The notes beneath the pieces are model-generated. The model was given only the letters and a program-made list of their open reading frames with translations. It searched no databases and was not told the origin of the DNA. This document shows, piece after piece, positions 13,601 to 41,746 of a stretch of 64,000 nucleotides of DNA. The translations under genes and the position numbers were made by a program. Each line of letters starts with the position of its first letter. Position 1 is the first letter of the stretch. The stretch lies in assembly GCA_027923505.1 (NCBI GenBank), contig BROI01000008.1, positions 744,001 to 808,000 on the forward strand. The letters are read 5' to 3'. Source of the stretch: Mayamaea pseudoterrestris (lineage: Eukaryota).

Positions 13601-14610
13601 ATGTATTTGCTGACAACTTGTCACCAGTCTCAGCCCGCAGATGCCATGACATTCAAATGCCCCTACAGCAAGCCCTGCAGGTGCCCAGATTACACCAGAA
13701 TGGTGCCAACATCATTATTCAGGCTGCACTACGAGATGGAAAGCTTGGCTGGTGTCTCAGGGGATGGCAATGTATTTGCTGACAACTTGTCACCAGTCTC
13801 AGCCCGCAGATGCCATGACATTCAAACGCCCCTACAGCAAGCCCTGCAGGTGCCCAGATTACACCAGAATGGTGCCAACATCATTATTCAGGCTGCACTT
13901 CGAGATGGAAAGCTTGGCTGGTGTCTCAGGGGATGGCAATGTATTTGGTGACAACTTGTCACCAGTCTCAGCCAGCAGATGCTCACGTGACATTCAAACG
14001 CCCCTACAGCAAGCCCTGTAGGTGCCCAAATTACACCAGAATGGTGCCAACATCATTTTTCAGGCTGCACTACAAGATGGAAAGCTTGGCTGGTGTCTCA
14101 GGAGATGGCAATGTATTTGGTGACAACTTGTCACCAGTCTCAGCCCGCAGATGCCATGACATTCAAATGCCCCTACAGCAAGCCCCGTAGGTGCCCAAAT
14201 TACAGCAGAATGGTGCCAACATCATTGTTTAGGCTGCGCTACAAGATGGTAGGCTTGGCTGGTGTCTCAGGGGATGGCAATGTATTTGCTGACAACTTGT
14301 CACCAGTCTCAGCCCGCAGATGCCATGACATTCAAACGCCCCTACAGCAAGCCCTGTAGGTGCCCAAATTACACCAGAACGGTGCCAACATCATTGTTTA
14401 GGCTGCACTACGAGATGGAAAGCTTGGCTGGTGTCTCAGGGGATGGCAATGTATTTGGTGACAACTTGTCACCAGTCTCAGCCAGCAGATGCCTTCATAT
14501 TTAATTGCCCCTATAAGAAGCCCTGTGGGGGCCCAAATTACACCAGAATGGTGCCAACATCATTATTCAAGCTGCGCTACAAGTGGGTAGGCTTGGCTGG
14601 TGTCTCAGGG
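10617..14610. repeat. 169-bp tandem satellite, block 1 (about 24 monomers)
   Basis: Head-to-tail repeats of CCCAAATTACACCAGAATGGTGCCAACATCATTATTCAGGCTGC...TGGTGACAACTTGTCACCA...CCTACAGCAAGCCCTGTAGG at 169-bp spacing. Confidence 0.98.
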
Positions 14611-14995
14611 TAACACCGTTGACGATTTCGCAGTCAACGTCTTACCTCCAAAAAGCTCCGATACAGGGTCCTTGGCCACGGTCTGTACAGCTCTGATGGA
14701 GATGGCTCGTCAAATAGTCTTGCGCTCGCCACTACACGAATACGACTGCACTCTCGTCGCAAACTAGTAGTTTTATATTGTGAGCTTATCGCTACATCGC
14801 TACATCGACCACTCGGAAGATCATCCGATCAATCCAATCACATTACATCAGTCGTAACTGGTCGTTCCATTCATACAACGCATCCACACGACGGTTGCGC
14901 ACTTTCTTCATTCACATGTCACATACGACAGCTGCGGACTCGACACAAGCTAATTAGGGTTCGGGCTCTTGACTTCGCCGCTCTACGACTTGTCA
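14611..14995 (-). repeat. 3' LTR of Copia A (385 bp)
   Basis: Direct repeat of 20814-21208. By eye 4 substitutions plus 1-bp and 9-bp indels. Termini TGACA...TGTTA on the minus strand. Confidence 0.95.
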
Positions 14996-17900
14996 CTCCC
15001 CTCGGGTACGCCGCTCGTCGTAGCCGCATTCTTGTCCTTCACAATTGCATACGATGTATCGCCGCGCCAAAACAATACTGGCTTGAGCAATGGCATCGCA
15101 TCACAGTACGGCAGGTACTTCGTCAGTACGTCCGCAATGTTCTCCTTTCCGTCAATCTTTACAAACTTGATAATCCCCGCAGCAACTGCCCAACGAACAC
15201 GATGGTAGGCCAACGCATTGTGTCGCTTGGACAATGTCGAACTCGGGATTGTAGATTGCGTAATCACTGCTTGGTTGTCTCCGTACATCCAGGCAGACTT
15301 CTCCAATGGTACGCCCATAGCCATGAGCGACACACGTAGAGAAATGCTGATATCCGTTCCACTCTTTGCTACGCCGAATTCCGATCCGAAGGTCGCAGTC
15401 TCGACTGTAGCCTGGAGTTTGCAATGCCAGTCGACAGGCGTCTGATTGACAAATGACAAAACTCCTTCCAATGACTTGCCTGTCACCATGCAATGCATGA
15501 GACACGCATCCTCGAAAGTTGATGTTCGTACGGTCACACCCTTTGGCGGTGGGTAGACGTCCAACATCTCATCAACTCCGTCCTTCCCGTAAACGCTGCG
15601 CTCCCAATCTTGTTCCTCCATGGTGCCGAAGTGCTCCTCGTTGGCTGGCCACTTTGTACGGAAACGGATTGCTGCGTCCGGTAACTCTCGCAAATATCCA
15701 CAGACTCGCTTCACACGCTGCAGGTGTCCCTTGCGCGGCTCCACACGGAATCGCGACAGACTCACAACTGCTACGGCAATGTCAAATCGTCCCAAAGTAA
15801 TCGCCCACTGAAGTGCTCCGACTAGAGACTGGTAAATCTTCTTCTCTTGGTCGTTCAGTAGCTCGCTTTGGTCGGTCGATGCTTGCTTGTCGATTTGGTG
15901 ATGGTACTTCTTCGGAGGACCTTCAAACAAACGCTCGTACTGCGCCAAGAATGCAACTTTCAGACGCCCGTAGGCAGTAAAGGGTTCCGTCAGGGTCTCG
16001 TCCAAAGTCACCGCCGAGATGATACTCGGGATGTCCAACACCTTTAAGCTTAAACTTGTACTTCTCCTCTAGCATCTTGAAGAACGCTGCTGGATCGTCT
16101 GAAATATTTAACAGATCGTCGACCCATACACAGAGGTAGTCGTAGCTGTCGCCGGCGTCCTTGATCCACAGATCGGAATCGCAATAGGACGGCTTCCACC
16201 CTTCCGCAAGTAGGGCGTCGGCTAAGCGTTCGTGAAATCGTGCTCCGCTCGTTCGCAATCCGTACAAAGCCTTGACGATGACCAGGATGTGTCCTTCGCG
16301 CTCCCCGAACTCGGGGCCTCCAACGAAGTATACCTTCTCCTTGGTGAACGCTTCGAGATAAGCATTCCCAATGTCACCGACCATGCACTTCTTGCCGTTC
16401 GCTTCTCCAATGACGAGAGCTAGACGCATTGCCTTCAATGAGATAACACTGGAGTAGGCATCGTCGTTGTCTTTCGTCATGTGGCCGCCTGCAACGAGAC
16501 GTGCCTTGTATCGCAAATCGTGCTTGACATCGTACACAAAATGGACTCGGATCTTCTGGTAACCAGTTGGTGGTGTTGTGGTGGAACTCGGACCAAGATC
16601 TTGAAACGTCTCGTACTCGTCCAGGTTCGCAAGCTCCACGCCTTCCGCATCCGTCCACTTCGTGTGCCCTGCAGCTTCTTGTAGACGACGCGCTTCCTTC
16701 CAGTCTCGGGGTACTTGGACTCCAAACTTGTAGCGCGGTCCGTTCTTCTGCTGCTCCATTCGGGCGGTCGCCACCTTGCGCGCAACCTTCTTGGCGTTCC
16801 GGCCCATCGATTCAACGATGTCCATCCGTCCTTGTCGAGAAGATTATGCTTTTGCGCGTAGGCTGCCACTGATACTTTGTCGCTTTCGATCATCGCGTTG
16901 AGAGGCTCCCAAGTCTTGGATCCATCGTCCCATTGTACAAGGACGTTCCACTTGGAGTGCTTCCAGTTCTTCGACTTGCTCGTCAGCGGACCCTGATGGT
17001 CTAGAATCTCCTTGAAGAACCATTTACGCTCAGGATTTGCCATGTCTTGGTTCACTTTGGCCTCATAGAGATCGGAAACCTCGACATAGGACATGACTTC
17101 ATCCGCTTCGCCGTTACCAAGTTTCAGCATCATTTTAATGTTCTGATGGTTCTGGGCGTCGCGATTGTTCAGCTTGCTCATGACGGTCGCTCGAACTTCT
17201 TGCCCGTCGTCCGTCTTCATGAGAAACGACTTGCCGATAAGTTCATCGGGTGCATACTTCGGGAGTTTGCGCCACGGATTGATGTTCTTCTTCTTCGGCT
17301 TGTCGTCGTCGTCATCGGCAGGAAGCATCGGCAGTGGATCTAGCTCCCCGTCGGTCATATCGTCATCTTCCGGGTATTCCACCGTCTCGACCAAAGGGGT
17401 ATCGTCTTCGTCAGGAATGAAAGAATCTTCGTCTCTGCTGTCGGCGTCGGTAATCTTCTTGATCATTTCCGGCATAAGGATCTCGCCACCTAGACCAGGT
17501 ACGGTATAGCGCGGCTCCCCTTCTTTCATGACTGGGGAAGCAGGTGCCGGTACGCGAAGGTTCAAAAATTTTGGGTTGTTTCGGGGTAAGCAAACCGATC
17601 GCGTCATGATCTCGTGTGTCTCGCAATCGCAGATGAAGTACGTCAGGTCGTCTCCGCACGTCGTGTTGGGACCAAGCCAGTACGCCGCGCGCTGGCGGGT
17701 ACCCGGGGCCTCGACATCCTTGACAAAGTAGTTGACAATTTCAAACCAACGAAAATGCAAATACTTCGACACGTCGGGGACTTGCCCAGTGATAAACTCA
17801 ATGGGAGATTTGCCGTCCAAGGCAGGATGCGACAAATGACGGTACATCTCGGTCTGAAAGAGTAAAGCGCGTAGCCAGAAGCATGCCGGAGTGCCCGTTC

Positions 17901-20716
17901 GGTCCATAAGTCGTTCATGACTTTCCTTTACGTGCCCGATGATGCGATCGGCTGGGTTTTGATTCTGATAGTACGGCTCCGATGTATGACGACGGCGAAT
18001 CATGAACTCGCGCATTACTTCGTCAAACTCGGCACTCATCGCTTCTTTCGCATTATCCGAGAAGACTTCCAACGGAGCTCCAAACTCGCGGATGAAATCA
18101 CGGAATCGTTTTGGTACGTCACCTTTCGTCCGCATGGGATACACGACAATGATCTGACTGCGACAACCATAGAATAGCTGCACGCATGTGCACCCTGCAT
18201 GTCCGTCGATATGGTCATCCATGGCAGGTTCGTCGAAGAACATGGTGTCATGGGCCACTCGATCATCTAGACGGTAGACGTTCAGGAATCGGCTCTTTCG
18301 ATGCATTCGTGGGGGGTATCGGCGCTCGTGCATGTTGAACTGCGTGCTATGGCGCAAAGTATCCTTGATCGTCTGCGCCGGGTACCATGCAAAGTTCGGC
18401 AGCAATGCGTCGATATCGGGTTTCTTTGGCAGGATAGACTTGTAGGGCTGATAGACGAGATCCGCATTGTATTTCTGTACGACGGCACAAACATTCAGCT
18501 CCTTCTCGGTGTAAACAGGTTGATTGTCGTGTCCGAGATTCGTATAAGTCAGGTTGCTCTGACAATGGGTGCGATTCCGCGTACGCGAGCGTGTCACGCG
18601 CGTGAAGCCCTCTTCGTCGTCACTGTCTTCGTCGTCTTCATCGCGCGACAACAAGTCCGGTACGTCGTCCTCGTCGTCATCGTCATCCGAAGAGTCATAG
18701 TCGTCGTCCTCGGTCGGCTCGACGTCAAACTCATTCGGATCCCAAGGCCCATCGAAAGTCATCATGACCCGAGGTAAGGTGTGAAGCTCATGCGCCGACA
18801 CTGGAAACATTGGCAAGGTCGCCATGCCACTTTCCATTCCGAGCATAAACTTGTATCCATCTGGCGTTTCGATTCGTAACTTGCCACCAAAGTTGTAATG
18901 CTTATCATTGACATGAAGTCCGAAGGCTTCCATCTGCATACTCGAATGAATCGTCTTGCCGGTTCCAGAATATGCGTAATTATGGAACTCGCCGATGACC
19001 CAACCCTTGGTGCTCTTAAGCTTGGCGACTGCTGTGACGGTAGACAGGTCCGGAAGCTTGAGACCACCGACTCCAGTGACTTCAATCTTGTGGAACTTGT
19101 CCTCGGTAAGGATGCGGCCATCCGCTCCCCATACTCCGCCACTCGCGCCGCGATCGACAGTCGACGCTGAATGCTTATCCAAGTCAATGCTCGCGACTTT
19201 GTACTTGCGACTCTGAGCAATGTTTGCTCCCCGAGTCGTAGTCGTGGGCTGGTCTGGACCTAAGAAACTTCGCATCGCTGAGCCACGGCTGGTGTTGTTC
19301 ACACATTCGGTCGCCGCACTCGCCGTCGTTGCCGCTGATGAAGTGGCTGCGACGTTTGCGTTGCGTGTTGTACTCGTCGTCTGCGTGGTGCCTGCCTGTG
19401 TTGCTGATGCCGAACCACCTGCAGCACTGGCCGCTCGACTCGTACCACGGCGTTCAAACACTTCATGTTGCTGATCGCGGGTAAGGAGTCGCCACGTGTT
19501 TGGTGGAATCGTCGCATTCACGTCGCTGGGAATTTCGATCGTCTTCGTGTCGGCATAGCTGCGAACATACGAACGAGTATCTCCCCGACCGCGGCCGCCG
19601 CCGCCTCGTCCCGTGCTCAAGTCGCCGCAACCACCGCCCCCCTGATTGGATTGCTGATTGTTGCTGCTACTTGGCGTAGACTGGGAATTGTTTGCGCTTG
19701 CCTTCTTCGTCTTCTCCTTCTCTTTCTTGGTTTGCTCAGATTGGTTCGCCTGGCGCTTCTCGGTCTCCTTGATGCCACGACGATTGTCAGATTGACGTGC
19801 GACGTCGTTCAGGAGGTTCCAAAACTGGGTGTACGTCATCGGGTTGCCGGTCTTGGACTCTTCGATCAGCGCCATGTTCACCGCCGATGCCATATCCGCA
19901 TGGCGGAAAACCACGGTCAGCTCTGACGCTTCGTGCTGAGGCTCGGTTTCCTCAGCGTAGTCATTGTAGTTCTCTTCCTTGCTGGACCACTGGATAAGCC
20001 AATCTGACGAGAGACTGCCATGACGGGATTCAAATTGCCCTTCGTCTTCGCGAGCACGGTGCCCAACTCCAGAATGTCGCCTCCAACTCTGCATGACGCA
20101 GGCATTTGCGCTGTCGATGTGCTTGCGGCAATGGACATGAGCTTGCTCTGCGGTGTCTTGCAGGTAAGGCGGCAAAGTTCGGTGACACTGATACTGGCAC
20201 CGGGCTCGGAGTGCAGCTGGTGCCTTGACCCTCTCGTCCCCAGCCAAGCGCCAGTAGGTGCCAGAGGAGCAGAAGGGCGACATCGTTTTGAGGCCTCCAT
20301 GTCAGCTTGATGTCGTGTCGCTTTGTCGTGGTGTCGTTGCCTCCGATAACGCTGAAGTCTCCGAAACTGCGGTTTCCTGCGGTCGGTGACCCCGGTGCTG
20401 CTGGGAGGTCTCGGCTCGTAATGTGGTCTTTCTCCAGGTCTTGCCATTGCGCAGTCGTCCGACGTTGCTCGTGAATCCAACTCATGAGCTTGCGCAACCG
20501 GCTTGTTCGTATCGTCGACCACTGGTGCTGGGTCTTAATGTTTGTCACGTCTTGTTCCGACAGCTCGGCCATCGCCTCCGCAGTCGTGAGTTCCTCTTGC
20601 TCGAAACACACTGCGGTAGGGTCGTTTGGATCCCAAGTTGCGGATGCTGCGAGCCACGGAATGTCAAAGACTTTACCGACGGCACGCTTGTAGGTCGTTA
20701 CATCAATTGTCGCCAT
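14983..20716 (-). pseudogene. Frameshifted gag-pol polyprotein of Copia A
   Basis: Coding sequence is split over four ORFs (breaks near 20280, 16810 and 15970). Protease VDRGASGG, integrase HDT/SDNA/NPAD, RT YKARLVAGG and CVWVDD, RNase H ENIADVLTK. Confidence 0.9.
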
Positions 20717-20813
20717 GGTGGAGGTTGATCAGAGGAATCGGACTTGCTGCAGATGAATGTGTCACGATAGCTCCCTCGCTCATTCTTGCTCTCGAAGCAC
20801 TGAAATGTTAATC

Positions 20814-21208
20814 TAACACCGTTGACGATTTTGCAGTCAACGTCTTACATCCAAAAAGCTCCGATACAGGGTCCTTGGCCACGGTCTGTACAGCTCTTGA
20901 TGGAGATGGCTCGTCGAATAGTCTTGCGCTCGCCACTACACGAATACGACTGCACTCTCGTCGCAAACTAGTAGTTTTATATTGTGAGCTTATCGCTACA
21001 TCGCTACATCGACCACTCGGAAGATCATCCGATCAATCCGTTTCTTTCAATCACATTACATCAGTCGTAACTGGTCGTTCCATTCATACAACGCATCCAC
21101 ACGACGGTTGCGCACTTTCTTCATTCACATGTCACATACGACAGCTGCGGACTCGACACAAGCTAATTAGGGTTTGGGCTCTTGACTTCGCCGCTCTACG
21201 ACTTGTCA
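20814..21208 (-). repeat. 5' LTR of Copia A (395 bp)
   Basis: Direct repeat of 14611-14995, followed on the minus strand by GATTAACA (20813-20806). Confidence 0.95.
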
Positions 21209-27200: not shown

Positions 27201-30102
27201 CAGAATGGTGCCAACATCATTATTCAGGCTGCACTACAAGATGGAAAGCTTGGCTGGTGTCTCAGTGGATGGCAATGTATTTGGTGACAACTTGTCACCA
27301 GTCTCAGCCGGCAGATGCCATGACATTCAAACGCCCCTACAGCAAGCCCTGTAGGTGCCCAAATTACACCAGAATGGTGCCAACATCATTATTCAGGCTG
27401 CACTACAAGATGGTATGCTTGGCTGGTGTCTCAGGGGATGGCAATGTTTTTGGTGACAACTTGTCACCAGTCTCAGCCTGCAGATGCCATGACATTCAAA
27501 CACCCCTACAGCAAGCCCAGTAGGTGCCCAAATTACACCAGAATGGTGCCAACATCATTATTCAGGCTGCACTACAAGATGGAAAGCTTGGCTGGTGTCT
27601 CAGGGGATGGCAATGTATTTGGTGACAACTTGTCACCAGTCTCAGCCGGCAGATGCCATGACATTCAAACGCCCCTACAGCAAGCCCTGTAGGTGCCCAA
27701 ATTACACCAGAATGGTGCCAACATCATTATTCAGGCTGCACTACAAGATGGTATGCTTGGCTGGTGTCTCAGGGGATGGCAATGTTTTTGGTGACAACTT
27801 GTCACCAGTCTCAGCCTGCAGATGCCATGACATTCAAACACCCCTACAGCAAGCCCAGTAGGTGCCCAAATTACACCAGAATGGTGCCAACATCATTATT
27901 CAGGCTGCACTACAAGATGGAAAGCTTGGCTGGTGTCTCAGTGGATGGCAATGTATTTGGTGACAACTTGTCACCAGTCTCAGCCGGCAGATGCCATGAC
28001 ATTCAAACGCCCCTACAGCAAGCCCTGTAGGTGCCCAAATTACACCAGAATGGTGCCAACATCATTATTCAGGCTGCACTACAAGATGGTAGGCTTGGCT
28101 GGTGTCTCAGTGGATGGCAATGTATTTGGTGACAACTTGTCACCAGTCTCAGCCGGCAGATGCCATGACATTCAAACGCCCCTACAGCAAGCCCTGTAGG
28201 TGCCCAAATTACACCAGAATGGTGCCAACATCATTATTCAGGCTGCACTACAAGATGGTATGCTTGGCTGGTGTCTCAGGGGATGGCAATGTTTTTGGTG
28301 ACAACTTGTCACCAGTCTCAGCCTGCAGATGCCGTGACCTTCAAACGCCCCTACAGCAAGCCCAGTAGGTGCCCAAATTACACCAGAATGGTGCCAACAT
28401 CATTATTCAGGCTGCACTACAAGATGGAAAGCTTGGCTGGTGTCTCAGTGGATGGCAATGTATTTGGTGACAACTTGTCACCAGTCTCAGCCGGCAGATG
28501 CCATGACATTCAAACGCCCCTACAGCAAGCCCTGTAGGTGCCCAAATTACACCAGAATGGTGCCAACATCATTATTCAGGCTGCACTACAAGATGGATAG
28601 CTTGGCTGGTGTCTCAGGGGATGGCAATGTATTTGGTGACAACTTGTCACCAGTCTCAGCCAGCAGATGCCGTGACCTTCAAACGCCCCTACAGCAAGCC
28701 CTGTAGGTGCCCAAATTACACCAGAATGGTGCCAACATCATTGTTTAGGCGGCGCTACAAGATGGTAGGCTTAGCTGGTGTCTCAGGGGATGGCAATGTA
28801 TTTGGTGACAACTTGTCACCAGTCTCAGCCAGCAGATGCCATGACATTTAGACGCCCCTACAGCAAGCCCTGTAGGTGCCCAAATTACACCAGAATGGTG
28901 CCAACATCATTATTCAGGCTGCACTACAAGATGGAAAGCTTGGCTGGTGTCTCAGGGGATGGCAATGTATTTGGTGACAACTTGTCACCGGTCTCAGCCC
29001 ACAGATGCCAGCCCCTACAGCAAGCCCTGTAGGTGCCCAAATTACACCAGAACGGTGCTAACATCATTATTCAGGCTGCACTACAAGATGCCAAGCTTGG
29101 CTGGTGTCTCAGGGGATGGCAATGTTTTTGGTGACAACTTGTCACCAGTCTCAGCCAGCAGATGCCGTGACCTTCAAATGCCCCTACAGCAAGCCCTGTA
29201 GGTGCCCAAATTACACCAGAACGGTGCCAACATCACGATTTAGGCTGCGCTACAAGATGGTAGGCTTGGCTGGTGTCTCAGGGGTTGTATGGCAATGTAT
29301 TTGGGGACAACTTGTCACCAGTCTCAGCCTGCAGATGCCATGACATTCAGATGCGCCTACAGCAAACCCTGTAGGTGCCCAAATTACAACAAAATGGTGC
29401 CAACATCATTATTCAGGCTGCACTACAAGATGGAAAGCTTGGCTGGTGTCTCAGGGGATGGCAATGTATTTGGTGACAACTTGTCACCAGTCTCAGCCAG
29501 CAGATGCCATGACCTTCAAATGCCCCTACAGCAAGCCCTGTAGGTGCCCAAATTACACCAGAACAGTGCCAACATCATTATTCAGGCTGCGCTACAAGAT
29601 GGTAGGTTTGGCTGGTGTCTCAGGGGTTGTATGGCAATGTATTTGGTGACAACTTGTCACCAGTCTCAGCCCACAGATGCCATGACATTCAGATGCACCT
29701 ACAGCAAACCCTGTAGGTGCCCAAAATACACCAAAATGGTGCCAACATCATTATTCAGGCTGCACTACAAGATGGATAGCTTGGCTGGTGTCTCAGGGGA
29801 TGGCAATGTATTTGGTGACAACTTGTCACCAGTCTCAGCCAGCAGATGCCATGACCTTCAAACGCCCCTACAGCAAGCCCTGTATGGGGCCCAAATTACA
29901 CCAGAATGGTGACAACATCATTATTCAGGCTGCACTACAAGATGGTAGGCTTGGCTGGTGTCTCAGGGGATGGCAATGTATTTGGTGACAACTTGTCACC
30001 AGTCTCAGCTAGCAGATGCCATGACATTCAGATGCCCCTACAGCAAGCCCTGTAGGTGCCCAAATTACACCAGAATGGTGCCAACATCATTATTCAGGCT
30101 GC
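21209..30102. repeat. 169-bp tandem satellite, block 2 (about 53 monomers)
   Basis: Same monomer and orientation as block 1; resumes in phase after the CAGGG TSD. Confidence 0.98.
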
Positions 30103-30842
30103 TCCCAAGGCAGTCTCCCAACAAGGTCGGCAAGTCTAACCAAAGGAATGGGAGGCAACCCAATCAACATCGGCATGTGGTCTGCCCATTGTCGGTAGCT
30201 GTTCCCATTCTCCCCCCGCACCACTGATGACATGACTATCGATCACAGTGTACTCATAAGGTATCAATGGTGCCCCACAGCAGGCCCTCGTAGCCGGAAC
30301 AATCATCAGAATGCGTGCCACTTCATTCTTCGGCTGTTCCTACTCGCACGCCTGGCTGCGCCCGGCCAGCTGCCCAAAAGTTGGCAGCGATGTATTTGGT
30401 GCAACTATGGACCAGTCAACTCCCCAGTCCATGACATCAACCACTTCAGCAGGCGACCTGTGAGGAGGATTCGCCACAACCCACACGAACAACAGCTTGC
30501 TGGGGGCAGTCACGCCACACAAACAAACAAGAAGCCGTGTGGCGAGAACCGCGGAAGAAAGGAAAGAGAAAGGAGAACGAGAAGACTCTGGATCTGGTGG
30601 AAAGACCCTGGAGGTTGCTCCTGATAAGGAGGAGCTAGCTAAAGACGAGGAGCGCACAAGCAGCCAGCCCGGAGGATGGCGACTCGGATGCAAACCTTTA
30701 GCTACAGTCTCGTAACCTATAAATCTCAACGATGCAGAAGAGTGTAACGTCTGCTAGTAGATGAGGTCTTGTATGACCCTCAAAGTAGAACGGCTCCCTG
30801 GATGGCCTTGAGCGTGAGGCGCCCAACTTCCTGGGAGCTTTC

Positions 30843-32600
30843 TCAAAGGTAATGCTGCACAGAAGGCGCTGACCATCTTAAACGGAAAGCAATCTCCTGT
30901 ATATCAAGGCCTGCGTTCTACAAAGCAACTGCCGCCATGACGCGATTGGAATGAGCCACTATGCGGGTCACATTTTGGCGCAGGAAATGTTGTGGGTTTG
31001 GGTATGCTCCAACCACCGCTGCTCGCATCACTTTGATGATATCCCGTGACTGTAGATAGTCATAACTCCCAGTGGAAGACGTTCGAAAGACACCCAAAGG
31101 CTCCTTGAATGGTTTGCTGTGAAGGCACCATGCGCGTCCAATGATGGACATACTTGCTGCGATGGGGCAAATGAATGGATGCCCGGACCATTTAAATTTT
31201 CGTATGGTGAAATTGGTTTGGCTCTTGTCATAGCGAAAGCGCAAGTGCAATTCAGCCTGTCATGTGTGATCAGGACGCTGTCAGCCGTGTAAAACATGAA
31301 ATCTAAATCAATGAATGCCAGCGGTTGGTTGGCCCATTCACCGGCATCCCTATTTGCTGGGACCTTGCTGAAGCATCCTCTACGTGCTGTAGTCTGTGCG
31401 TATTCATTTGCTCGCGAGCCAGTGAAAGCCCCAAGGCATGTCCAGTCGAAAACGGTGGTTTGTACGTCAAGATTTACTGTTGCGTTGGTGGCCGTCTCCT
31501 TTTTCAATGTGGCGTATATAGCAGGTATGCAACAGAAAGTAGTATCACTATGCCGTTAAAAGTAGCGCACCTCGGAATCGAACCAAGGATAACCGGCTAT
31601 ATCACCTCTAAACACGCTGCTACTTTTCCGTCTGCTAGTGTACTATATGCTGCATACAAGGCACCATGCACTATGACAAGTAAAGGTATCGCTCTGGTTG
31701 CTGTTTTTCGTGTGCAACCTGCTACTCCCCTAGCTTTGCGCGTCATAGTGCTAACTCGTCTTCCGTTTCAGCTGGCATTTTCGTCTCGCGGGGGAATGTC
31801 ACTTTTCAGTTTTTCCTGCGGCGTTTCGGGCTCGGCGCATCTTTGTGCACTCCCCAGGGTCCGCGACTCCCCATCGTTCGTTCGTGACAAACCCGTGCAA
31901 CCAGTGAATTTTTGCTTTTTCTTCGCTTGATTCGATCGCAACTCGAACCAGCAGCCTCAGTCCAGATCTCTCGATAGGGACGCTACCATAGCAGGTATGC
32001 AACAGAAAGTAGTATCACTATGCCGTTAAAAGTAGCGCACCTCGGAATCGAACCAAGGATAACCGGCTATATCACCTCTAAACACGCTGCTACTTTTCCG
32101 TCTGCTAGTGTACTATATGCTGCATACAAGGCACCATGCACTATGACAAGTAAAGGTATCGCTCTGGTTGCTGTTTTTCGTGTGCAACCTGCTATATAAG
32201 TACTCAAACATCTTGTTGGTGAATGGCTCGCGCTTCTCTCACGCCTTCTGCCACTTGCGCCGACTGGCCAGTATGTCGGCAAGCATTGGATGATATCCCT
32301 CCTTGCTTATATTTTGGATTGGAAATTTCCTGTTGAGGAACAACTCGAGGAGGGAGTGTGCTGCATTTAAGTAGCCCACCAATGTTTTCACCATCAATGG
32401 ATCTTGTTGGGCGCCGGCCTTCCCTTGGAGTTTCTTTTTGTCAATCTCAAGTGATGTTTTACCAGAGGCCACAGCAAACAAGTATCCCGCTAGGATCGCA
32501 ACTTCTTGCCCCGGTGAGACTTCCGCAAAAGACTTGTCTGTGAATCCTGCCTGGAGACTCCATCTTCCAAAATGCGAGGCTCTCTGATCAAACGCGCAAT
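30843..32600 (-). pseudogene. Tyrosine recombinase pseudogene
   Basis: Catalytic motifs TGSRANEY (R), RYDKS (K), AHSNRV (HxxR), FRLRWS (W) and QHYL (Y). In-frame stops at 32239, 30918 and 30843, a frameshift near 31255, and interruption by the TRIM. The 5' limit is approximate. Confidence 0.88.
31519..32194 (-). mobile_element. TRIM (miniature non-autonomous LTR retrotransposon), 676 bp
   Basis: Identical 206-bp LTRs (31519-31724 and 31989-32194) with 8-bp inverted ends TAGCAGGT/ACCTGCTA. PBS TGGTAGCGTCCC (31988-31977), PPT AGGGGAG (31731-31725) and 4-bp TSD TATA. Removing it restores the YR frame FEYLYATLKKE. Confidence 0.93.
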
Positions 32601-33022
32601 CGTTTCTGGCCCGTATGTCGCCTCGCTCGCGCTCCCATTGATCAGGGACAAGATCGTTGAAAGCAGCTCTCGCTCCACTAGGAAGATTTTGCAGGCTGCC
32701 AATGCCTGCGTGTCCTGTGAGATAACGGACGCCCACGACATTGTTGATGGAGTGAATCGAGAGAGTTGGTCGGCTTCCACAAGCGCCGAGGTGTTGTCTG
32801 ACAATACATTGAGAATGTGTTGTCGATCTCGAATGGCTGGTGTGTGGCAGATGGCACACAAAGACAGTACCACGTTTATGACAATGGCCACGAATTCCAA
32901 AATATTGATATGGTATTCATCCGTGACGAGCGGTCGTTGAGAAGGCTTGGTATTGAATTTGCGCATTTTGAATTTGCAGGTAGCCAAGTCCTCGTCATTC
33001 AAGCGCCACATAAAGAGCAAGG

Positions 33023-33335
33023 TTGCAGGATGCGAACGAAAACAGCGAAAATCGGGCAAGTCACACCGAATGTCCGATAGGGTGACACAGCGGCACTCGC
33101 GGCTCACCACAGCCTCACGATCGCGTGATGCGTGGCAGCGACGGCTTCGAAGCGATTCAACAAGTATATTGCTGAAACTAGTGCGATATAGAGTAGAAAC
33201 AAGCAGACTTACTAAGCTTGAAGAGTTAAGAAAGCGATTTATTCGTCTCTCGTATTGTAGCAACTGCAAGCTTGGATTGGCCATCCAAGGACAGCTACAA
33301 GCGAAAGGTGCAACGATTTGATTTACAAGTTACAA
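33023..33335 (+). repeat. 5' LTR of Copia B
   Basis: TTGCAGG...GTTACAA, identical by eye to 39295-39607 and 41434-41746; followed by GATTAACA. Confidence 0.93.
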
Positions 33336-33484
33336 GATTAACACTGTCTTGAGACTCATTGCCTCGGCATAGAGACTTTATCGACGAAGAGTACTATTGA
33401 TTTACGAAGTAACGTGGACGCACGTTGGTTCTTGGCCCGGAAAGTTCCGCAGGTGATAGCAAGAACATTGTCACGACGACAACG

Positions 33485-36400
33485 ATGGCGGAAACTCGCG
33501 CGCAGAAAGACGCGGCGTTTGCGCATGTTTACGAAGAGAACGTAGGCGTTTTCCAAGATCCTCAGTTCAAGGAGTTATTCGACGAACTCGGAGTAGAATC
33601 GCTTACGCAACTGATCGAGATGGAGTACGACGATTTCGCGACGAAGTGGAACGTCACGACGACGACAACGACGACGACTGACGATGGCGACAATGTCACG
33701 CAGGAAACGAGCGAACACTCGCTAACGAAGATGAAACAACGCACGATCACGAACGCGATCGAATGGTATTTGGCGCAAGAGTCGCCGGACATCAAGACAT
33801 GGTCGCAACTGACCACCGAAACGCTGGCGACGTTCGTCACAGCACGAGCGAAGGAACGAGTCCAAGCGCGCAACATTGCGAGCGTGGGCAGCGGAAGCGG
33901 AGCGAAACCTCCAGCGAAGGAAAGCGAAACGGAATCCAAGAAGGACGAATCCAAGGACTCCACGCTAACGAACGAAGGCGACGAGTCGAAGCCTGACTCG
34001 GCCGACAAGGTGCCACCGACGAGTGTGGACGTGGACACGAAGCAGTCACCGACATCCGTACTGGACCTCGGCGACGACGAAGACGACGAGAAGTATTCAG
34101 ACCAATTTACGAAGTCTATCAAGTTCTCGGCGAGGGATTGTAAAGAAATGAAGCTGGATTCCTCGTGGAAACAGTGGATTTCCGAGTTGAAAGTCATCGC
34201 TACATTGCATGACTTCCACGAAGTCTTTGACGACGATTATGACCCGAAGGAAAAGGGACCGAAAGAACAGAAGGCGTATGCAAAGAAGAATGTGTTTGTA
34301 TACAGGATCTTTCTCACGCACTGTCGAACTCCGTCTGCATCACTCGCAGTACAGCAGTTCAAGAAGACGATGGACGGACGCGAAGTCTACCAACGATTGC
34401 GAACGCGATACGAAGAAGGCGCTACTGCTCACATCGAGAAGGAACGCGCGCGAACGGAACTGCAGGGAATGCGGCTGACCGAGAAGTGGTCACGGCCGAC
34501 GATCGAATTTCTCGCACTGTTCTACAAGAAAGTCATCTGGCTGCTCGAAATGGACGCAGAAGCTCTGACAGGTTTACAACGATACGACATGCTACGCGAC
34601 GCTTTCTCCGAGCACACAGGATTCAGCGCATCACTAGCAGGTTTTGACGGAATGATTGCCATCAAGAAACACATGGGGCAACACGACTCGGAAGACAATT
34701 TCGCGCAGTTGTACGCGCACTTAGAAGAGTGCTGCATCAAGTATGACAAGAAACACCCATCGACGACGAAGACTAAGCGCACAATCAATCAAGCGCAGTC
34801 TAGTGGAACGAAAGGAGGCGGCGGCGGCAATGGCGGCGCGACTCCAAGCGGCTTATCGGCGGAACGATTTGCAGCGATCATGAAGAAACCTCACGCGAGC
34901 GTGAAGGATGAAGTCTGGTTGGAGATGAAGTTTGATCAGCGAAAGCAGTTGAAGGACAAGCGTGCGACGGCGCCCAAGACACCCGAAAACGGATGGCGAC
35001 CGCGCAACCAACGAGGCACGGCTACGACGCAGACGCAAGTCAACGCGGCGCATCAAGAGCGTCACGCGACGGAATCTGTAGCGAACGATCACGCAAGCGT
35101 TCCTGGCACGATTAATATTCAGCCCGGCAATAGTGGAATGTCAGTCCAAACGGCTGCACGATCGGTTCTGCAAGCGAACAATGCGAGTACTACAACTCAG
35201 CAAGTGACAGGATCGTTGACGACTGATAACACCGGACGAGGTACATTCAGCTTCAACATGCATCGTCGTATGCGCGTCAATCGCGCACACTACGAGCGGA
35301 TCAACGAAGGCGCGCTCATCGACAGCGGCGCGAACGGAGGCTTATGCGGAGGAGACATGCTCGTCGTTTCGGAAACGAACGCCGAGGTGGATGTGACTGG
35401 TATTGACGATCATATTGTCCCAGCTCTCAAGATTGGCACTGCAGCTGGACTGGCAAAGACCCTTAGTGGCGAAACCATTCTGCTTCTGTGTCACCAGTAT
35501 GCTTTAAAGCGAGACGGACCGACGATTCATTGCCCGAATCAATTGCGCGCAATGGGACATCGCGTCGACGATATTCCGACCATGTTTGGCGGAACGCAAC
35601 GAATTACGACGAACATTGGAGGCTACGTTTTGCCATTGGCAATTCGCGATGGCCTGGTGTACTTGGACGTGACGAAACCCACGTTCGATGATTTGGATAA
35701 GTATCCGACTGTCATCATGACGTCGGACGTGCCGTGGGACTCGACTGTTTACGATGTCGAGCACGCGCACGACGATTTCGACGAACGAGATCATGATTAT
35801 GGATCTTTCGACGAACGATTCGATGATGACGGTATCACGCACCGCAATCGTCACACGCCGACACGCACTGGCGACGAACTTGACGTACTGATCAATCGGT
35901 GCGTGCGACACGCTCAGTTTTCACGCGTTAATTTGCGGAAGCTAAGAAGCAAGGAACCGGACTATAATGCTCTTCGGCCGTACCTCGGATGGGTCCCGAC
36001 TGAGCGCGTTCAACAGACTTTACGTCACACGGAAGCATGGTATCATCTCAGCGCACACCCGCGATTACCATTTCGACACCTCACGAAATCACGATTTCCG
36101 GCCGCGAACGTTCAGCGGTTGCGCGAACTATTCGCCACGGACACGATACACTCTGACACGCCAGCTTTGGATGATGGAATTCTAGGGCATGGGGGAGCTA
36201 CTAAGATGCAGCTCTTTGTTGGACGAGAAAGTTTTTACACGCGCGGCTACCCGATGAAGTCGGAGAGCGAAATGTCAAACGCGTTAGAGGATTTTATCCG
36301 CGAAGTGGGCGCTCCTAACGGACTGCTCAGCGACAATGCCAAGTCGGAGACTGGCAAGGCTGTGAGGGATCTCTGTCGGATGTACAATATTCCTCAAGTG

Positions 36401-39277
36401 ACCACAGAACCGGGTCATCCAGAACAAAATCCATGCGAACGTCACACGTCGCACATTAAGCCAATGATGGAGAACCTCCAACGAGATTCGGGTTCGCCAG
36501 GCCATTGCTGGGTTTTGCTGATTAAATTCGTAATCATGATACTGAACGTCCTCGCGACGAAATCGCTGGGATGGCGCACGCCAACGGAAGTTGCGTTCGG
36601 AAATCTGCCGGATATTTCGCCTTTGTTACATTTCAAGTGGTGGGAACCGGTCACGTTTGAGGCGCAGGGGAGCTTTCCCTCGGCGGTACGATCTGGCAAC
36701 GGCCGATTCGTGGGCATCGCAGAGAATAGCGGTCCGCACATGACTTTTCTCGTTCTGACGGACGACACGCTTCAGGCGATTCCGCGCTCCAACGTGGTCT
36801 CGCGCAGCTACTTGTTACCACGAGAGTTGCCTTCCTTCCCTGAGTCTGGAGGGGAGATTTCTGAAGAAGCTACACGCGCAAGCGAGCGAAATTTTGAAAC
36901 TCCAGATCTCGCGACAGGACGCTACCATAGCACGCATGTGACAGAAAGTAGTCACGACAACTACGAAGGAAACGACGACGAAACGATTCCGATGGCGAAC
37001 CACGCCAACGTACCAGCGAAGTTCTTCAGAAGGGCTGAGCAAGAATCAGGGAATAAATGCCCTCTGTTCTCTCCAAGCGAACTCATCGGACGCACGTTCG
37101 TAAGGGAACACGAAAACGGTCAGAAAATGCGAGCGACTGTATGCGAATATATCGAAGTACGCGATAACGAGCTACTCGAAACGACGAAAGGTTTCCTAAT
37201 CCAAATGGGAGAGGAGCCAGCGAAAGACTTAATAAGTTACAACGAACTGTCGGATTTAATCGAACGACAGATGGACGAAGATATACGAAACGATCCGGCG
37301 ACTCAGTGGGTATTCACGAAGGTAATCGGACACGAGCTTAATTTGAAACCGAACGATCCGACATACAAAGGAAGTTCAAGTAACGTTCTCGTCGAATGGA
37401 CTGACGGAACGACGACGTGGGAGCCTCTCGCGATCATGAAGAAGGACGATCCGATAACGATCGCAGAGTATGGACTCAAGCACGGCTTACTCGACAAGCC
37501 AGGATGGAAGCAGCTGGAGCATTACACTCGGAAGCGAAAGAAGTTTCGACAGATGGTAACAGCGGCGAAACGAAAATCGAAAGCAAACGGCGTACGCTAC
37601 AAATTCGGCGTAAGGTTGCCGCGCAATTATAAAGATGCGAAAGCTCTCGACGAGATCAACGGCAACACGCTGTGGACGGATGCGATTCGAACGGAATTAA
37701 ATCAGATAAATGATTACGACACGTTCGCAGATCAAGGAGTCGGTAAGGTTATGCCGGCGCCGTGGAAACGAATAAACGTGCACATGATATTCGATGTCAA
37801 GCACGATTTGCGACGGAAAGCACGACTCGTTGCAGGAGGACATATGACAGAGCCGCCGAAGGATTCAGTTTACTCGGGCGTTGTGTCATTGCGAAGTCTA
37901 CGAATGGTAGCGATGTTAGCGGAACTCAACGGTCTGGAACTGTGGGCAGCTGACGTCGGCAACGCATACTTGGAAGCGAAAACGAAAGAGAAGGTTTATA
38001 TCGTGGCAGGTCCGGAGTTCGGGGAGCTCGAGGGTCACACGCTCACGATCGTGAAGGCATTATACGGTCTTCGCACGTCAGGCGCACGCTGGCACGAGCA
38101 CTTTGCAGACACGCTCCGCGACATTGGCTTCATGCCGTGTATCGCAGAACCGGACGTGTGGATGCGCGATAAAGGCACGCACTACGAATACGTTTGTGTG
38201 TATGTCGACGATTTAGCGATAGCGATGAAGAATCCGAAGGAACTAACGGATCTTTTAATTGAGAACTACAACTACAAGTTGAAGGGCGTCGGTCCATTGG
38301 CATATCATTTGGGCGCAGACGTTTGGCGAGACGACGACGGCGTACTCTGCTTCGGAGCGAAGAAGTACGTCACAAGACTACTAGCGAACTACAAAGAAAT
38401 GTTCGGCGAGGAACCGCGACCGCAGACAAGTCCACTACGCGACGGCGATCATCCGGAACTCGACGAAACGAAAGAACTTGACGACGACGGAATTGCGAAG
38501 TATCAATCGATAATTGGTGCGTTGCAATGGGCAGTAAGTTTATGTCGATTCGACATTCACTGTGCTGTCATGACTATGGGGAGATTCCGAGCTGCGCCAC
38601 GAGCGGGGCACTTGGAACGGTTGAAGCATATTTGCGGATACTTACGAAGATACCCGGATGGAGCGATTCGATTCAACGTTTCGATTCCAACGGACGAGCG
38701 ATACGCGACAGTTGACAAGATGGATTGGGATTACAGTGTGTACGGCAAGATCTGCGAAGAGCTTCCGTGGAACATGCCCACGCCGCGCGGCAAGGCGGTG
38801 CGAATGTCAACGTTCGAAGATGCGAACCTGTACCACGATTACACGACGGGACGGGCAGCGATGGGCATGCTACACATGTTGAATGGAACAGTCGTTGATT
38901 GGTTTTCGAAACGCCAAGCGACGGTCGAGACGGCGACGTACGGCTCGGAGTTTGTAGCAGCGAGAGTGAGCACGGAGCAGATCATGGATCTTCGCTTCAC
39001 GCTACGCATGTTGGGAGTTCCGCTCGACGGACCTTCATGGATGTTTGGAGACAACAAGTCGGTAACGCAAAGCAGCAACCTACCGCACTCTAGTCTGACG
39101 AAGCGACACAATGCACTGGCATTTCACCGTGTACGCGAAGCGATTGCGGCGGGAATTATTAATTTCAACCACATCATGGGAACGACAAACCCGGCGGATG
39201 TACTTACCAAGTTTCTTCCACGGGCTACGGCAAGCAAGCACTTAAAGAACCTGCTCTTCAAGGAATCTAACTATTAG
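33485..39277 (+). CDS. Copia gag-pol polyprotein (1930 aa): Gag, protease, integrase, chromodomain-like module, RT, RNase H
   Basis: ATG at 33485. LIDSGANGG, ATDT/SDNA/NPCE (DDE), RKARLVAGG, CVYVDD and TNPADVLTK; no stops. Confidence 0.96.
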   Translation: MAETRAQKDAAFAHVYEENVGVFQDPQFKELFDELGVESLTQLIEMEYDDFATKWNVTTTTTTTTDDGDNVTQETSEHSLTKMKQRTITNAIEWYLAQESPDIKTWSQLTTETLATFVTARAKERVQARNIASVGSGSGAKPPAKESETESKKDESKDSTLTNEGDESKPDSADKVPPTSVDVDTKQSPTSVLDLGDDEDDEKYSDQFTKSIKFSARDCKEMKLDSSWKQWISELKVIATLHDFHEVFDDDYDPKEKGPKEQKAYAKKNVFVYRIFLTHCRTPSASLAVQQFKKTMDGREVYQRLRTRYEEGATAHIEKERARTELQGMRLTEKWSRPTIEFLALFYKKVIWLLEMDAEALTGLQRYDMLRDAFSEHTGFSASLAGFDGMIAIKKHMGQHDSEDNFAQLYAHLEECCIKYDKKHPSTTKTKRTINQAQSSGTKGGGGGNGGATPSGLSAERFAAIMKKPHASVKDEVWLEMKFDQRKQLKDKRATAPKTPENGWRPRNQRGTATTQTQVNAAHQERHATESVANDHASVPGTINIQPGNSGMSVQTAARSVLQANNASTTTQQVTGSLTTDNTGRGTFSFNMHRRMRVNRAHYERINEGALIDSGANGGLCGGDMLVVSETNAEVDVTGIDDHIVPALKIGTAAGLAKTLSGETILLLCHQYALKRDGPTIHCPNQLRAMGHRVDDIPTMFGGTQRITTNIGGYVLPLAIRDGLVYLDVTKPTFDDLDKYPTVIMTSDVPWDSTVYDVEHAHDDFDERDHDYGSFDERFDDDGITHRNRHTPTRTGDELDVLINRCVRHAQFSRVNLRKLRSKEPDYNALRPYLGWVPTERVQQTLRHTEAWYHLSAHPRLPFRHLTKSRFPAANVQRLRELFATDTIHSDTPALDDGILGHGGATKMQLFVGRESFYTRGYPMKSESEMSNALEDFIREVGAPNGLLSDNAKSETGKAVRDLCRMYNIPQVTTEPGHPEQNPCERHTSHIKPMMENLQRDSGSPGHCWVLLIKFVIMILNVLATKSLGWRTPTEVAFGNLPDISPLLHFKWWEPVTFEAQGSFPSAVRSGNGRFVGIAENSGPHMTFLVLTDDTLQAIPRSNVVSRSYLLPRELPSFPESGGEISEEATRASERNFETPDLATGRYHSTHVTESSHDNYEGNDDETIPMANHANVPAKFFRRAEQESGNKCPLFSPSELIGRTFVREHENGQKMRATVCEYIEVRDNELLETTKGFLIQMGEEPAKDLISYNELSDLIERQMDEDIRNDPATQWVFTKVIGHELNLKPNDPTYKGSSSNVLVEWTDGTTTWEPLAIMKKDDPITIAEYGLKHGLLDKPGWKQLEHYTRKRKKFRQMVTAAKRKSKANGVRYKFGVRLPRNYKDAKALDEINGNTLWTDAIRTELNQINDYDTFADQGVGKVMPAPWKRINVHMIFDVKHDLRRKARLVAGGHMTEPPKDSVYSGVVSLRSLRMVAMLAELNGLELWAADVGNAYLEAKTKEKVYIVAGPEFGELEGHTLTIVKALYGLRTSGARWHEHFADTLRDIGFMPCIAEPDVWMRDKGTHYEYVCVYVDDLAIAMKNPKELTDLLIENYNYKLKGVGPLAYHLGADVWRDDDGVLCFGAKKYVTRLLANYKEMFGEEPRPQTSPLRDGDHPELDETKELDDDGIAKYQSIIGALQWAVSLCRFDIHCAVMTMGRFRAAPRAGHLERLKHICGYLRRYPDGAIRFNVSIPTDERYATVDKMDWDYSVYGKICEELPWNMPTPRGKAVRMSTFEDANLYHDYTTGRAAMGMLHMLNGTVVDWFSKRQATVETATYGSEFVAARVSTEQIMDLRFTLRMLGVPLDGPSWMFGDNKSVTQSSNLPHSSLTKRHNALAFHRVREAIAAGIINFNHIMGTTNPADVLTKFLPRATASKHLKNLLFKESNY

Positions 39278-39294
39278 GTATGACTTGAGGGGAG

Positions 39295-39607
39295 TTGCAG
39301 GATGCGAACGAAAACAGCGAAAATCGGGCAAGTCACACCGAATGTCCGATAGGGTGACACAGCGGCACTCGCGGCTCACCACAGCCTCACGATCGCGTGA
39401 TGCGTGGCAGCGACGGCTTCGAAGCGATTCAACAAGTATATTGCTGAAACTAGTGCGATATAGAGTAGAAACAAGCAGACTTACTAAGCTTGAAGAGTTA
39501 AGAAAGCGATTTATTCGTCTCTCGTATTGTAGCAACTGCAAGCTTGGATTGGCCATCCAAGGACAGCTACAAGCGAAAGGTGCAACGATTTGATTTACAA
39601 GTTACAA
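39295..39607 (+). repeat. Second LTR of Copia B
   Basis: 313-bp direct repeat preceded by the PPT. Confidence 0.93.
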
Positions 39608-41746
39608 TATGGACTCAAGCACGGCTTACTCGACAAGCCAGGATGGAAGCAGCTGGAGCATTACACTCGGAAGCGAAAGAAGTTTCGACAGATGGTAACA
39701 GCGGCGAAACGAAAATCGAAAGCAAACGGCGTACGCTACAAATTCGGCGTAAGGTTGCCGCGCAATTATAAAGATGCGAAAGCTCTCGACGAGATCAACG
39801 GCAACACGCTGTGGACGGATGCGATTCGAACGGAATTAAATCAGATAAATGATTACGACACGTTCGCAGATCAAGGAGTCGGTAAGGTTATGCCGGCGCC
39901 GTGGAAACGAATAAACGTGCACATGATATTCGATGTCAAGCACGATTTGCGACGGAAAGCACGACTCGTTGCAGGAGGACATATGACAGAGCCGCCGAAG
40001 GATTCAGTTTACTCGGGCGTTGTGTCATTGCGAAGTCTACGAATGGTAGCGATGTTAGCGGAACTCAACGGTCTGGAACTGTGGGCAGCTGACGTCGGCA
40101 ACGCATACTTGGAAGCGAAAACGAAAGAGAAGGTTTATATCGTGGCAGGTCCGGAGTTCGGGGAGCTCGAGGGTCACACGCTCACGATCGTGAAGGCATT
40201 ATACGGTCTTCGCACGTCAGGCGCACGCTGGCACGAGCACTTTGCAGACACGCTCCGCGACATTGGCTTCATGCCGTGTATCGCAGAACCGGACGTGTGG
40301 ATGCGCGATAAAGGCACGCACTACGAATACGTTTGTGTGTATGTCGACGATTTAGCGATAGCGATGAAGAATCCGAAGGAACTAACGGATCTTTTAATTG
40401 AGAACTACAACTACAAGTTGAAGGGCGTCGGTCCATTGGCATATCATTTGGGCGCAGACGTTTGGCGAGACGACGACGGCGTACTCTGCTTCGGAGCGAA
40501 GAAGTACGTCACAAGACTACTAGCGAACTACAAAGAAATGTTCGGCGAGGAACCGCGACCGCAGACAAGTCCACTACGCGACGGCGATCATCCGGAACTC
40601 GACGAAACGAAAGAACTTGACGACGACGGAATTGCGAAGTATCAATCGATAATTGGTGCGTTGCAATGGGCAGTAAGTTTATGTCGATTCGACATTCACT
40701 GTGCTGTCATGACTATGGGGAGATTCCGAGCTGCGCCACGAGCGGGGCACTTGGAACGGTTGAAGCATATTTGCGGATACTTACGAAGATACCCGGATGG
40801 AGCGATTCGATTCAACGTTTCGATTCCAACGGACGAGCGATACGCGACAGTTGACAAGATGGATTGGGATTACAGTGTGTACGGCAAGATCTGCGAAGAG
40901 CTTCCGTGGAACATGCCCACGCCGCGCGGCAAGGCGGTGCGAATGTCAACGTTCGAAGATGCGAACCTGTACCACGATTACACGACGGGACGGGCAGCGA
41001 TGGGCATGCTACACATGTTGAATGGAACAGTCGTTGATTGGTTTTCGAAACGCCAAGCGACGGTCGAGACGGCGACGTACGGCTCGGAGTTTGTAGCAGC
41101 GAGAGTGAGCACGGAGCAGATCATGGATCTTCGCTTCACGCTACGCATGTTGGGAGTTCCGCTCGACGGACCTTCATGGATGTTTGGAGACAACAAGTCG
41201 GTAACGCAAAGCAGCAACCTACCGCACTCTAGTCTGACGAAGCGACACAATGCACTGGCATTTCACCGTGTACGCGAAGCGATTGCGGCGGGAATTATTA
41301 ATTTCAACCACATCATGGGAACGACAAACCCGGCGGATGTACTTACCAAGTTTCTTCCACGGGCTACGGCAAGCAAGCACTTAAAGAACCTGCTCTTCAA
41401 GGAATCTAACTATTAGGTATGACTTGAGGGGAGTTGCAGGATGCGAACGAAAACAGCGAAAATCGGGCAAGTCACACCGAATGTCCGATAGGGTGACACA
41501 GCGGCACTCGCGGCTCACCACAGCCTCACGATCGCGTGATGCGTGGCAGCGACGGCTTCGAAGCGATTCAACAAGTATATTGCTGAAACTAGTGCGATAT
41601 AGAGTAGAAACAAGCAGACTTACTAAGCTTGAAGAGTTAAGAAAGCGATTTATTCGTCTCTCGTATTGTAGCAACTGCAAGCTTGGATTGGCCATCCAAG
41701 GACAGCTACAAGCGAAAGGTGCAACGATTTGATTTACAAGTTACAA
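39608..41746 (+). mobile_element. Second, 5'-truncated copy of Copia B (RT, RNase H and third LTR 41434-41746)
   Basis: Exact copy of 37469-39607 at offset 2139, starting immediately after the second LTR. Confidence 0.93.

Follow-up and report, generated by a model that had tools for sequence, protein, structure and literature searches.

A candidate half-tRNA-Asn primer site shared by two divergent Ty1/copia retrotransposons and their relatives

Introduction

Two divergent retrotransposons, designated Copia A and Copia B, carry the same octamer, GATTAACA, immediately downstream of the 5' LTR in the stretch of DNA analysed here (64 kb in all, hereafter the window). This octamer is probably the core of the minus-strand PBS in a clade of diatom-type Ty1/copia elements, with a 5' fragment of tRNA-Asn as the primer. 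Priming from a tRNA-Asn half was first put forward in a first-pass annotation of the window, and the reading has since gained from the conservation of the octamer at every readable junction of the clade, the fit of the extended motif GATTAACAGTC to tRNA-Asn, the presence of a comparable site in a sister clade and the failure to find a self-primer.

In the proposed mechanism, cytoplasmic tRNA-Asn(GUU) would be cut in the 3' strand of its anticodon stem, leaving a 5' fragment with C40 at its 3' end, and the last 8 to 14 nucleotides of this fragment would anneal to the RNA immediately 3' of U5. Pairing would involve U33-G-U-U-A-A-U-C40 and would extend, in many elements, to C32 and to positions 31 through 27 of the stem. 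RT would then extend the fragment from C40 into U5-R to yield minus-strand strong-stop DNA, after which replication would continue as it does for copia and Ty5. Because the site matches the anticodon arm of tRNA-Asn, the elements probably prime from the cut tRNA; from this match we infer a host tRNA-Asn with U39-C40, its cleavage after nucleotide 40 and the priming event itself.

Structure of Copia A and Copia B

Copia A and Copia B are Ty1/copia (Pseudoviridae) elements with a Copia-type RT (RVT_2). The alignment of the two takes in PR-IN ahead of RT, which places the integrase upstream of RT. Identity between them is 30% over PR-IN and 51% over RT, in keeping with their original description as divergent families, and yet they fall within a single RT clade. 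The two elements also have in common a stretch between IN and RT (~37350-37470, aa 1310-1345 of Copia B) that includes NVLVEWTDGTTTWEPL; by eye this stretch resembled a chromodomain, and it had no Pfam match at E <= 1.

Copia A lies on the minus strand and possesses direct LTRs, a PPT and a 5-bp target duplication. Its 5' LTR (20814..21208; TGACAAG...GGTGTTA, 395 nt) and 3' LTR (14611..14995) are 96.5% identical, and the end of the LTR is fixed by the target duplication, CCCTG, found at 21209-21213 and 14606-14610. The polyprotein of the internal region (14996..20805, minus strand) is divided among at least four frame segments, with the RVT_2 region at 15923-16825 (E = 1.7e-21, Pfam) and the PPT, GAGGGGAG, at 14996-15003.

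Copia B lies on the plus strand and begins with a 5' LTR of 313 nt (33023..33335; TTGCAGG...GTTACAA). The gag-PR-IN-RT-RH polyprotein is encoded by one intact ORF of 1950 aa (33485..39277), the frame being open from 33425 with its first ATG at 33485. RVT_2 occupies aa 1444-1655 of the product (E = 4.9e-25, Pfam), and an rve-like stretch at aa 939-999, positioned upstream of RT, has an E value of 4.5e-4, which is below Pfam's cut-off. The ORF is followed by the PPT GAGGGGAG (39287..39294) and by a second LTR (39295..39607). A third LTR (41434-41746) exists because the segment 37469-39607, which contains the 3' part of pol, the PPT and the LTR, is repeated exactly and in tandem at 39608..41746 on the same strand, bringing with it a second copy of the PPT at 41426-41433. 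All three LTRs are 100% identical.

The end of the Copia B LTR is fixed by the two other LTR copies, which have different downstream sequences, and contigs of a public run branch at 33335/33336, which is the border between LTR and leader. No target duplication was found for this element, which is flanked by GCAAG and CACCA and is rearranged, with its three LTRs. The second LTR is joined directly to the repeat of internal sequence from 37469 onwards, with neither flanking DNA nor a PBS at that point. This LTR|internal junction and its counterpart in the relative L034, described below, may be products of recombination or aberrant strand transfer, or may be assembly artefacts. Copia B was present in 9 listed sequencing runs, with no RNA run among these 9. 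Because its LTRs are identical, its 1950-aa ORF is intact and it is present in the nine listed runs, its site appears to have been functional recently, as judged from recent activity of the element.

The octamer at the LTR/leader junction

The only two matches to GATTAACA in the window lie at 33336-33343 on the plus strand and at 20813-20806 on the minus strand. As a count, two against 1.8 expected is at chance level, and the non-random part is the placement: both copies are the first 8 nt 3' of a 5' LTR, the ends of the LTRs were delimited independently by the target duplication, the PPTs, terminal inverted repeats and the run contigs, and the probability that two fixed positions share an 8-mer is 4^-8, or ~1.5e-5. 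The putative PBS core of Copia B (33336..33343), which is unchanged in 4 public runs, and that of Copia A (20806..20813) thus each adjoin the 5' LTR. Beyond the octamer the two elements diverge, with Copia B continuing CTGTCTTGAG and Copia A TTTCAGTGCT, so that the arrangement given in the first-pass annotation, an identical octamer directly after the LTR followed by divergence, was confirmed with independently fixed LTR ends.

The same annotation had stated that neither element has the TGG of a normal PBS, and TGG is indeed absent from the first 30 nt after the LTR in both Copia A and Copia B. As in PBSs of the half-tRNA type, the site in each element abuts the 5' LTR and has no complement to the 3' end of a tRNA. 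In both elements 8 contiguous bases match nt 33-40 of E. coli tRNA-Asn, and the earlier caution that the pairing visible in the window is limited to 8 bp was well placed.

Relatives and conservation of the octamer

Relatives were sought by alignment of the RT regions of Copia A and Copia B. The search identified 28 loci in metagenome contigs and 16 in contigs binned into bacterial MAGs, and the same RT alignment found no relatives in the viral contigs searched. The 16 binned contigs (L030-L045) were filed under Sphingobacteriaceae, Weeksellaceae, Aeromonas, Planctomycetota and other MAGs; their content is clearly that of eukaryotic retroelements, and their binning reflects contamination by eukaryotic repeats. 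Bacillariophyta is the group in which the nearest Atlas clusters are most frequent, on the strength of very few labelled members, so that a diatom/stramenopile type for these Copia elements is a lead only. A diatom host is likewise a lead only, to which a Nop14+Tudor_5 architecture shared with a mostly diatom cluster also points.

The RT tree, comprising 37 rows after L007, L024 and L026 (several stops each) were left out, splits into two clades with an SH-aLRT of 100 each, namely the window's clade of 17 rows and a sister clade of 20. The 17 rows of the window's clade include 10 readable junctions, 6 contigs that fall short of the LTR junction and one leaderless element, L034, whose LTR runs directly into the interior of the polyprotein, in the protease region (6140-6230). 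Without a leader, L034 is therefore also without a PBS. L043, a Copia fragment on a 350-kb contig, was too degraded to serve as a source of a junction.

Conservation of the motif in relatives had been proposed as a check on the tRNA-Asn reading, and LTR|GATTAACA was found at 10/10 readable junctions of the window's clade (Copia A, Copia B, L002-L005, L031, L032, L033 and L035). Since the relatives share ancestry, this figure counts lineages of one clade and not independent origins. The columns that flank the octamer are unconserved and unalignable among these elements, and RT paths connecting members of the clade amount to more than one change per site.

LTRs of the relatives begin directly after (G)GGGAG, which itself follows the pol stop, with TG (TA in L031) and terminate in CA; L002, L003, L005 and L033 have clear terminal inverted repeats (e.g., TGAAAC...GTTTCA and TGACAGA...TCTGTCA). 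Many of the contigs are ordered pol-PPT-LTR-PBS-gag, with a gag-like ORF after GATTAACA. This order arises because both LTRs collapsed in assembly or because the elements are in tandem, and it allows the junction to be read easily. Two further features were seen in the leaders. L005 has a second copy of GATTAACA at 6833-6840, 93 nt downstream of the PBS. The leader of L003 contains GATTACAACG (~5600-5612, ~40 nt after the PBS), which is close to GATTAACAACG in L005, and in these close relatives the two may represent a second conserved leader box.

Fit to the anticodon arm of tRNA-Asn

The octamer is directly followed by GTC in 6 of the 10 elements (L002, L003, L005, L032, L033 and L035), giving the 11-mer GATTAACAGTC. 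In another three, GTC follows an insertion of 1-2 nt (A in L004 and L031, CT in Copia B), and Copia A has TTTC. Under the rules applied for an anticodon-arm site ending at tRNA position 40, site positions 1:11 and 2:10 are complementary, position 8 is A (opposite U33), position 9 is a purine (opposite 32) and position 4 is a pyrimidine (opposite 37). These rules are all passed by GATTAACAGTC, as they are by 579 of the 127,980 11-mers of the window (0.45%); the 11-mers of Copia A, Copia B and L004 fail them.

The three site bases opposite the anticodon, AAC, are invariant in 10/10 and correspond to GUU, the anticodon of Asn. The sequence expected for pairing with a tRNA-Asn(GUU) arm that has A31-U39 and G30-C40 is also GATTAACAGTC. 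Nucleotides 30-40 of E. coli asnT read GACUGUUAAUC (G30-A-C-U-G-U-U-A-A-U-C40), the exact complement of GATTAACAGTC, although this bacterial tRNA may differ from that of the host. In some eukaryotes tRNA-Asn has C39, which would mismatch site position 2.

The longer motif GATTAACAGTCTTG occurs in L033 and L035 and, with an insertion, in Copia B and L031. Copia B has CT and then GTCTTG after the octamer (33344..33351, compared by eye with L033 and L035), and because L033 and L035 read GATTAACAGTCTTG without the CT, its site resembles one of 14 nt into which 2 nt have been inserted after position 8. Sites of the GATTAACAGTCTTG type would predict a host arm CAAGA-CUGUUAA-UCUUG (CAAGACUGUUAAUCUUG), and a tRNA-Asn primer as such would predict host cytoplasmic tRNA-Asn(GUU) genes with ACUGUUAAUC at positions 31-40. 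Positions 12-14 of the site vary among the elements of the window's clade, and the effective PBS may therefore be as short as 8-11 nt.

No tRNA genes were found in the 64-kb window or in the 28 metagenome loci. The 10 MAG bins with relatives were searched with a generic tRNA-Asn pattern, the second batch being judged from the pattern matches alone; in the first batch, ARAGORN confirmed tRNA-Asn on contigs L048, L049 and L052. These three were read as bacterial or of uncertain origin rather than as the tRNA of the eukaryotic host. L052, whose tRNA-Asn matches 14 nt of the site of L003 and L005, is gene-dense, has 38% GC and looks bacterial; on L048 the CCA end is encoded; and on L049 the gene lies in a cluster of six tRNAs, the tRNA-Ile of which is no match for the site of the sister clade.

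A putative tRNA-Ile-type site in the sister clade

In the sister clade a different motif, GTTTATCAGACCCA, follows the LTR in eight elements (L010, L011, L015, L016, L018, L019, L038 and L040), as for example at L011:4709-4722, and close variants are present in L008, L013, L014 and also L026. LTR ends in this clade were established by an LTR pair in L013/L014 only and by terminal inverted repeats in L015, and the rest were placed by the position of the motif. The arm rules are passed by GTTTATCAGACCCA as well, its 14 nt reading as the complement of positions 27-40 of an arm with the anticodon GAU/IAU. The motif reads as a tRNA-Ile-type anticodon-arm site in a register identical to that of the Asn site, and it would predict a host tRNA-Ile(AAU) with UGGGUCUAAUAAACCCA. 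Internally, the half-tRNA reading draws its strongest support from the fact that two clades pass the arm rules at one place.

Insertions right after PBS position 8 were observed in Copia B (33344-33345), L004 (2372), L031 (5500) and the sister-clade element L008 (5773-5774). Both clades have insertions at the boundary between the parts of the site that complement the loop and the stem. Another sister-clade element, L013, has an insertion after PBS position 6 (L013:5169). The clades also differ in gene organization: gag/pol forms one continuous ORF in the window's clade, whereas a single in-frame stop separates gag from pol in the sister-clade elements L010 (2327-2329), L011, L013-L016 and L019, which suggests read-through.

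A broader proposal, built on the Asn and Ile clades and their sites of at most 14 nt, is that a whole aquatic Copia branch primes from "positions 27-40 of whatever tRNA fits"; at present this generalization is doubtful. If it were true, cleavage after nucleotide 40 would be structure-specific and independent of tRNA identity, and lineages could switch primer among Asn, Ile and Lys through as few as one and no more than three substitutions in the bases facing the anticodon. Speculatively, the insertions of 1-2 nt after position 8 would then be scars left where plus-strand synthesis stops copying the tRNA primer, the trace of a modified nucleotide close to position 32.

Alternative explanations for the conserved octamer

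The octamer could be the PBS and yet be served by another RNA ending ...UGUUAAUC, such as a fragment of organellar tRNA-Asn, which is of bacterial type, half of a tRNA-Lys that pairs with one mismatch, or a small RNA of unrelated origin. Bacterial-type tRNA-Asn does carry the exact 11-mer, and even the 14-mer in the case of L052, so that plastid or mitochondrial tRNA-Asn would probably match too; likewise, the tRNA-Lys site of FunCo1, discussed below, is only one base different. However, organellar tRNAs are not expected at the place where cytoplasmic virus-like particles assemble, and a tRNA-Lys primer would place a mismatch, C:C or C:U, at the centre of the 8-bp helix. AAC is invariant in all 10 junctions and a perfect fit to GUU, and a primer other than a cytoplasmic tRNA-Asn half is considered unlikely.

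The octamer might instead be a different cis element at the U5/leader border, with a role in packaging or dimerisation or as part of a GalEa-like hairpin, and priming might follow another route. A precedent exists in the fungal GalEa Copia elements, which have a conserved non-tRNA sequence at the same position, a palindromic 9-mer that includes the last base of the LTR and pairs with a second conserved box (PMC5445492). The likeness to GalEa consists of a conserved non-canonical sequence exactly at the Copia PBS position, and the shortness of the invariant part, only 8 nt, would suit such an element. In contrast to the palindrome and second box of GalEa, A|GATTAACA is not palindromic with the end of the LTR, and MFE folds of six junctions have no common structure, the octamer being paired in some and open in others. 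A cis element would also leave the fit to the arm rules in two clades unexplained, and it is quite improbable as a substitute for a half-tRNA-Asn PBS.

Self-priming of the Tf1 type, in which the transcript of the element supplies its own primer, its 5' end folding back on the site and then being cleaved, is predicted for some Copia lineages, e.g., TAR, in the excerpted text of PMC6317226. It would be compatible with a site that has no match to a tRNA 3' end, a lack that Tf1/sushi elements share with Copia A and Copia B. Self-priming had been named at the outset as an outcome that would count against a tRNA-Asn primer, and nine LTRs were searched for the complement of their own site. In Tf1/sushi the 5' end of the transcript complements the PBS, whereas here the complement is absent from 9/9 LTRs (0/6 in the window's clade and 0/3 in the sister clade), the best matches, at 2 mismatches in 8 or 3-4 in 11, being no better than chance. 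Because no LTR holds the complement of its own site, self-priming is unsupported and very improbable.

Chance or neutral inheritance, by which the octamer would be a functionless leftover of common ancestry, accords with the placement of every carrier in one clade but is barely credible, given that the octamer is invariant in 10/10 despite RT paths of more than one change per site and unalignable neighbouring columns, and that Copia B was recently active with it.

Comparison with known priming systems

Half-tRNA priming with tRNA-iMet is known for copia and Ty5, in which the 3' end of the primer comes from internal cleavage of the tRNA (excerpt of PMC5371799). In plants, half-tRNA-iMet serves Osser, Bryco and part of Gymco-II, half-tRNA primers being reported exclusively in Ty1/copia and the type of primer being lineage-specific, according to the excerpted text of PMC6317226. 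As in copia, Ty5 and Osser, the PBS described here abuts the 5' LTR, is without TGG and complements the anticodon stem-loop. It differs in pairing with Asn(GUU) rather than initiator Met and in having a core of 8 nt, extended to 11-14 in many relatives; the hosts differ from those of copia and Ty5 as well, the clade of Copia A and Copia B being of diatom/stramenopile type as far as that lead goes. In copia the site, GGTTATGGGCC..., likewise ends at position 40, in register with those of Copia A and Copia B.

Two systems use half-tRNAs or internal tRNA regions other than initiator Met. The plant Bianca lineage has a 1/2tRNA-Ile primer with I34 (Neumann et al., 2019; excerpt of PMC6317226). Bianca is alike in using an elongator half-tRNA in a lineage-specific manner, and the sister-clade motif GTTTATCAGACCCA is of the same kind, with C opposite position 34; it differs in using Ile where the window's clade would use Asn, and the likeness is one of description, taken from that excerpt, and not of PBS sequence. 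In the fungal FunCo1 Copia, the PBS ATTAAGAGTCT corresponds to an internal region of tRNA-Lys (Donnart et al., 2017; PMC5445492). This too is an anticodon-arm site: ATTAAGAGTCT and ATTAACAGTC are one base apart, and ATTAAGAGTC and ATTAACAGTC differ only opposite anticodon position 34. FunCo1 differs in its tRNA, Lys(CUU) as opposed to Asn(GUU) here, and in its fungal hosts. A search of supplements gave no sequence context for the FunCo1 site, such as a possible G in front of it.

The yeast Copia element Ty4 is said to have tRNA-Asn as its primer and to pair with the 3' end of the whole tRNA. It is thus alike in the identity of the tRNA and different in the part used, an anticodon-arm fragment being proposed here; a literature search on Ty4 gave no matches.

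These comparisons bear on how much of the finding is new. The first-pass annotation knew of no description of such priming, and this held for the particular tRNA: literature searches, which covered the plant survey apart from its supplementary tables, found neither a half-tRNA-Asn PBS nor GATTAACA as a PBS. They also found no PBS description for CoDi elements, the diatom Copia groups of Maumus et al. (2009), PMC2806351 having no PBS passage, and a search on diatom tRNA fragments gave nothing usable. The claim did not hold for the mechanism, and novelty is lower than had been assumed, because half-tRNA priming with tRNAs other than iMet has been published (PMC5445492 and the excerpted part of PMC6317226). 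What is supported is a primer tRNA and a host group that are both new, for a mechanism that is itself already known.

Significance and genomic surroundings

The scope of such priming so far comprises initiator tRNA-Met, tRNA-Ile in one plant lineage and an internal region of tRNA-Lys in one fungal clade. If the tRNA-Asn reading is true, with a tRNA-Ile counterpart in the sister clade, the half-tRNA mechanism would be general among Copia lineages of microbial eukaryotes, with the choice of primer specific to the lineage. In practical terms, LTR annotation tools that seek only complements of tRNA 3' ends would call "no PBS" in these elements, and LTR|GATTAACA(GTC) and LTR|GTTTATCAGACCCA offer simple markers with which to find and orient them. 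Copia B, being young and intact, provides a test case for the cutting of half-tRNA primers, and the proposed priming is relevant to the idea that tRNA fragments may regulate retrotransposons.

Both elements are inserted in a 169-bp tandem satellite, of which more than 100 copies, ~92-97% alike, occupy 10590-14610, 21209-30102 and 42561-48229 of the window. Copia A is embedded in the array, where its target duplication is clean, and degenerate satellite sequence forms the right flank of Copia B from 41747 onwards. The satellite block could be centromere-like or heterochromatic and targeted by these Copia elements. To the left of Copia B, the non-satellite block 30103-33022 contains a perfect 207-bp direct repeat (31518-31724 and 31988-32194). 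Two very long ORFs, of 1686 aa and 598 aa, are located at 2003-8711 on the minus strand and have no Pfam match at E <= 0.001, and they are adjoined by an ankyrin-repeat ORF at 8948-10594.
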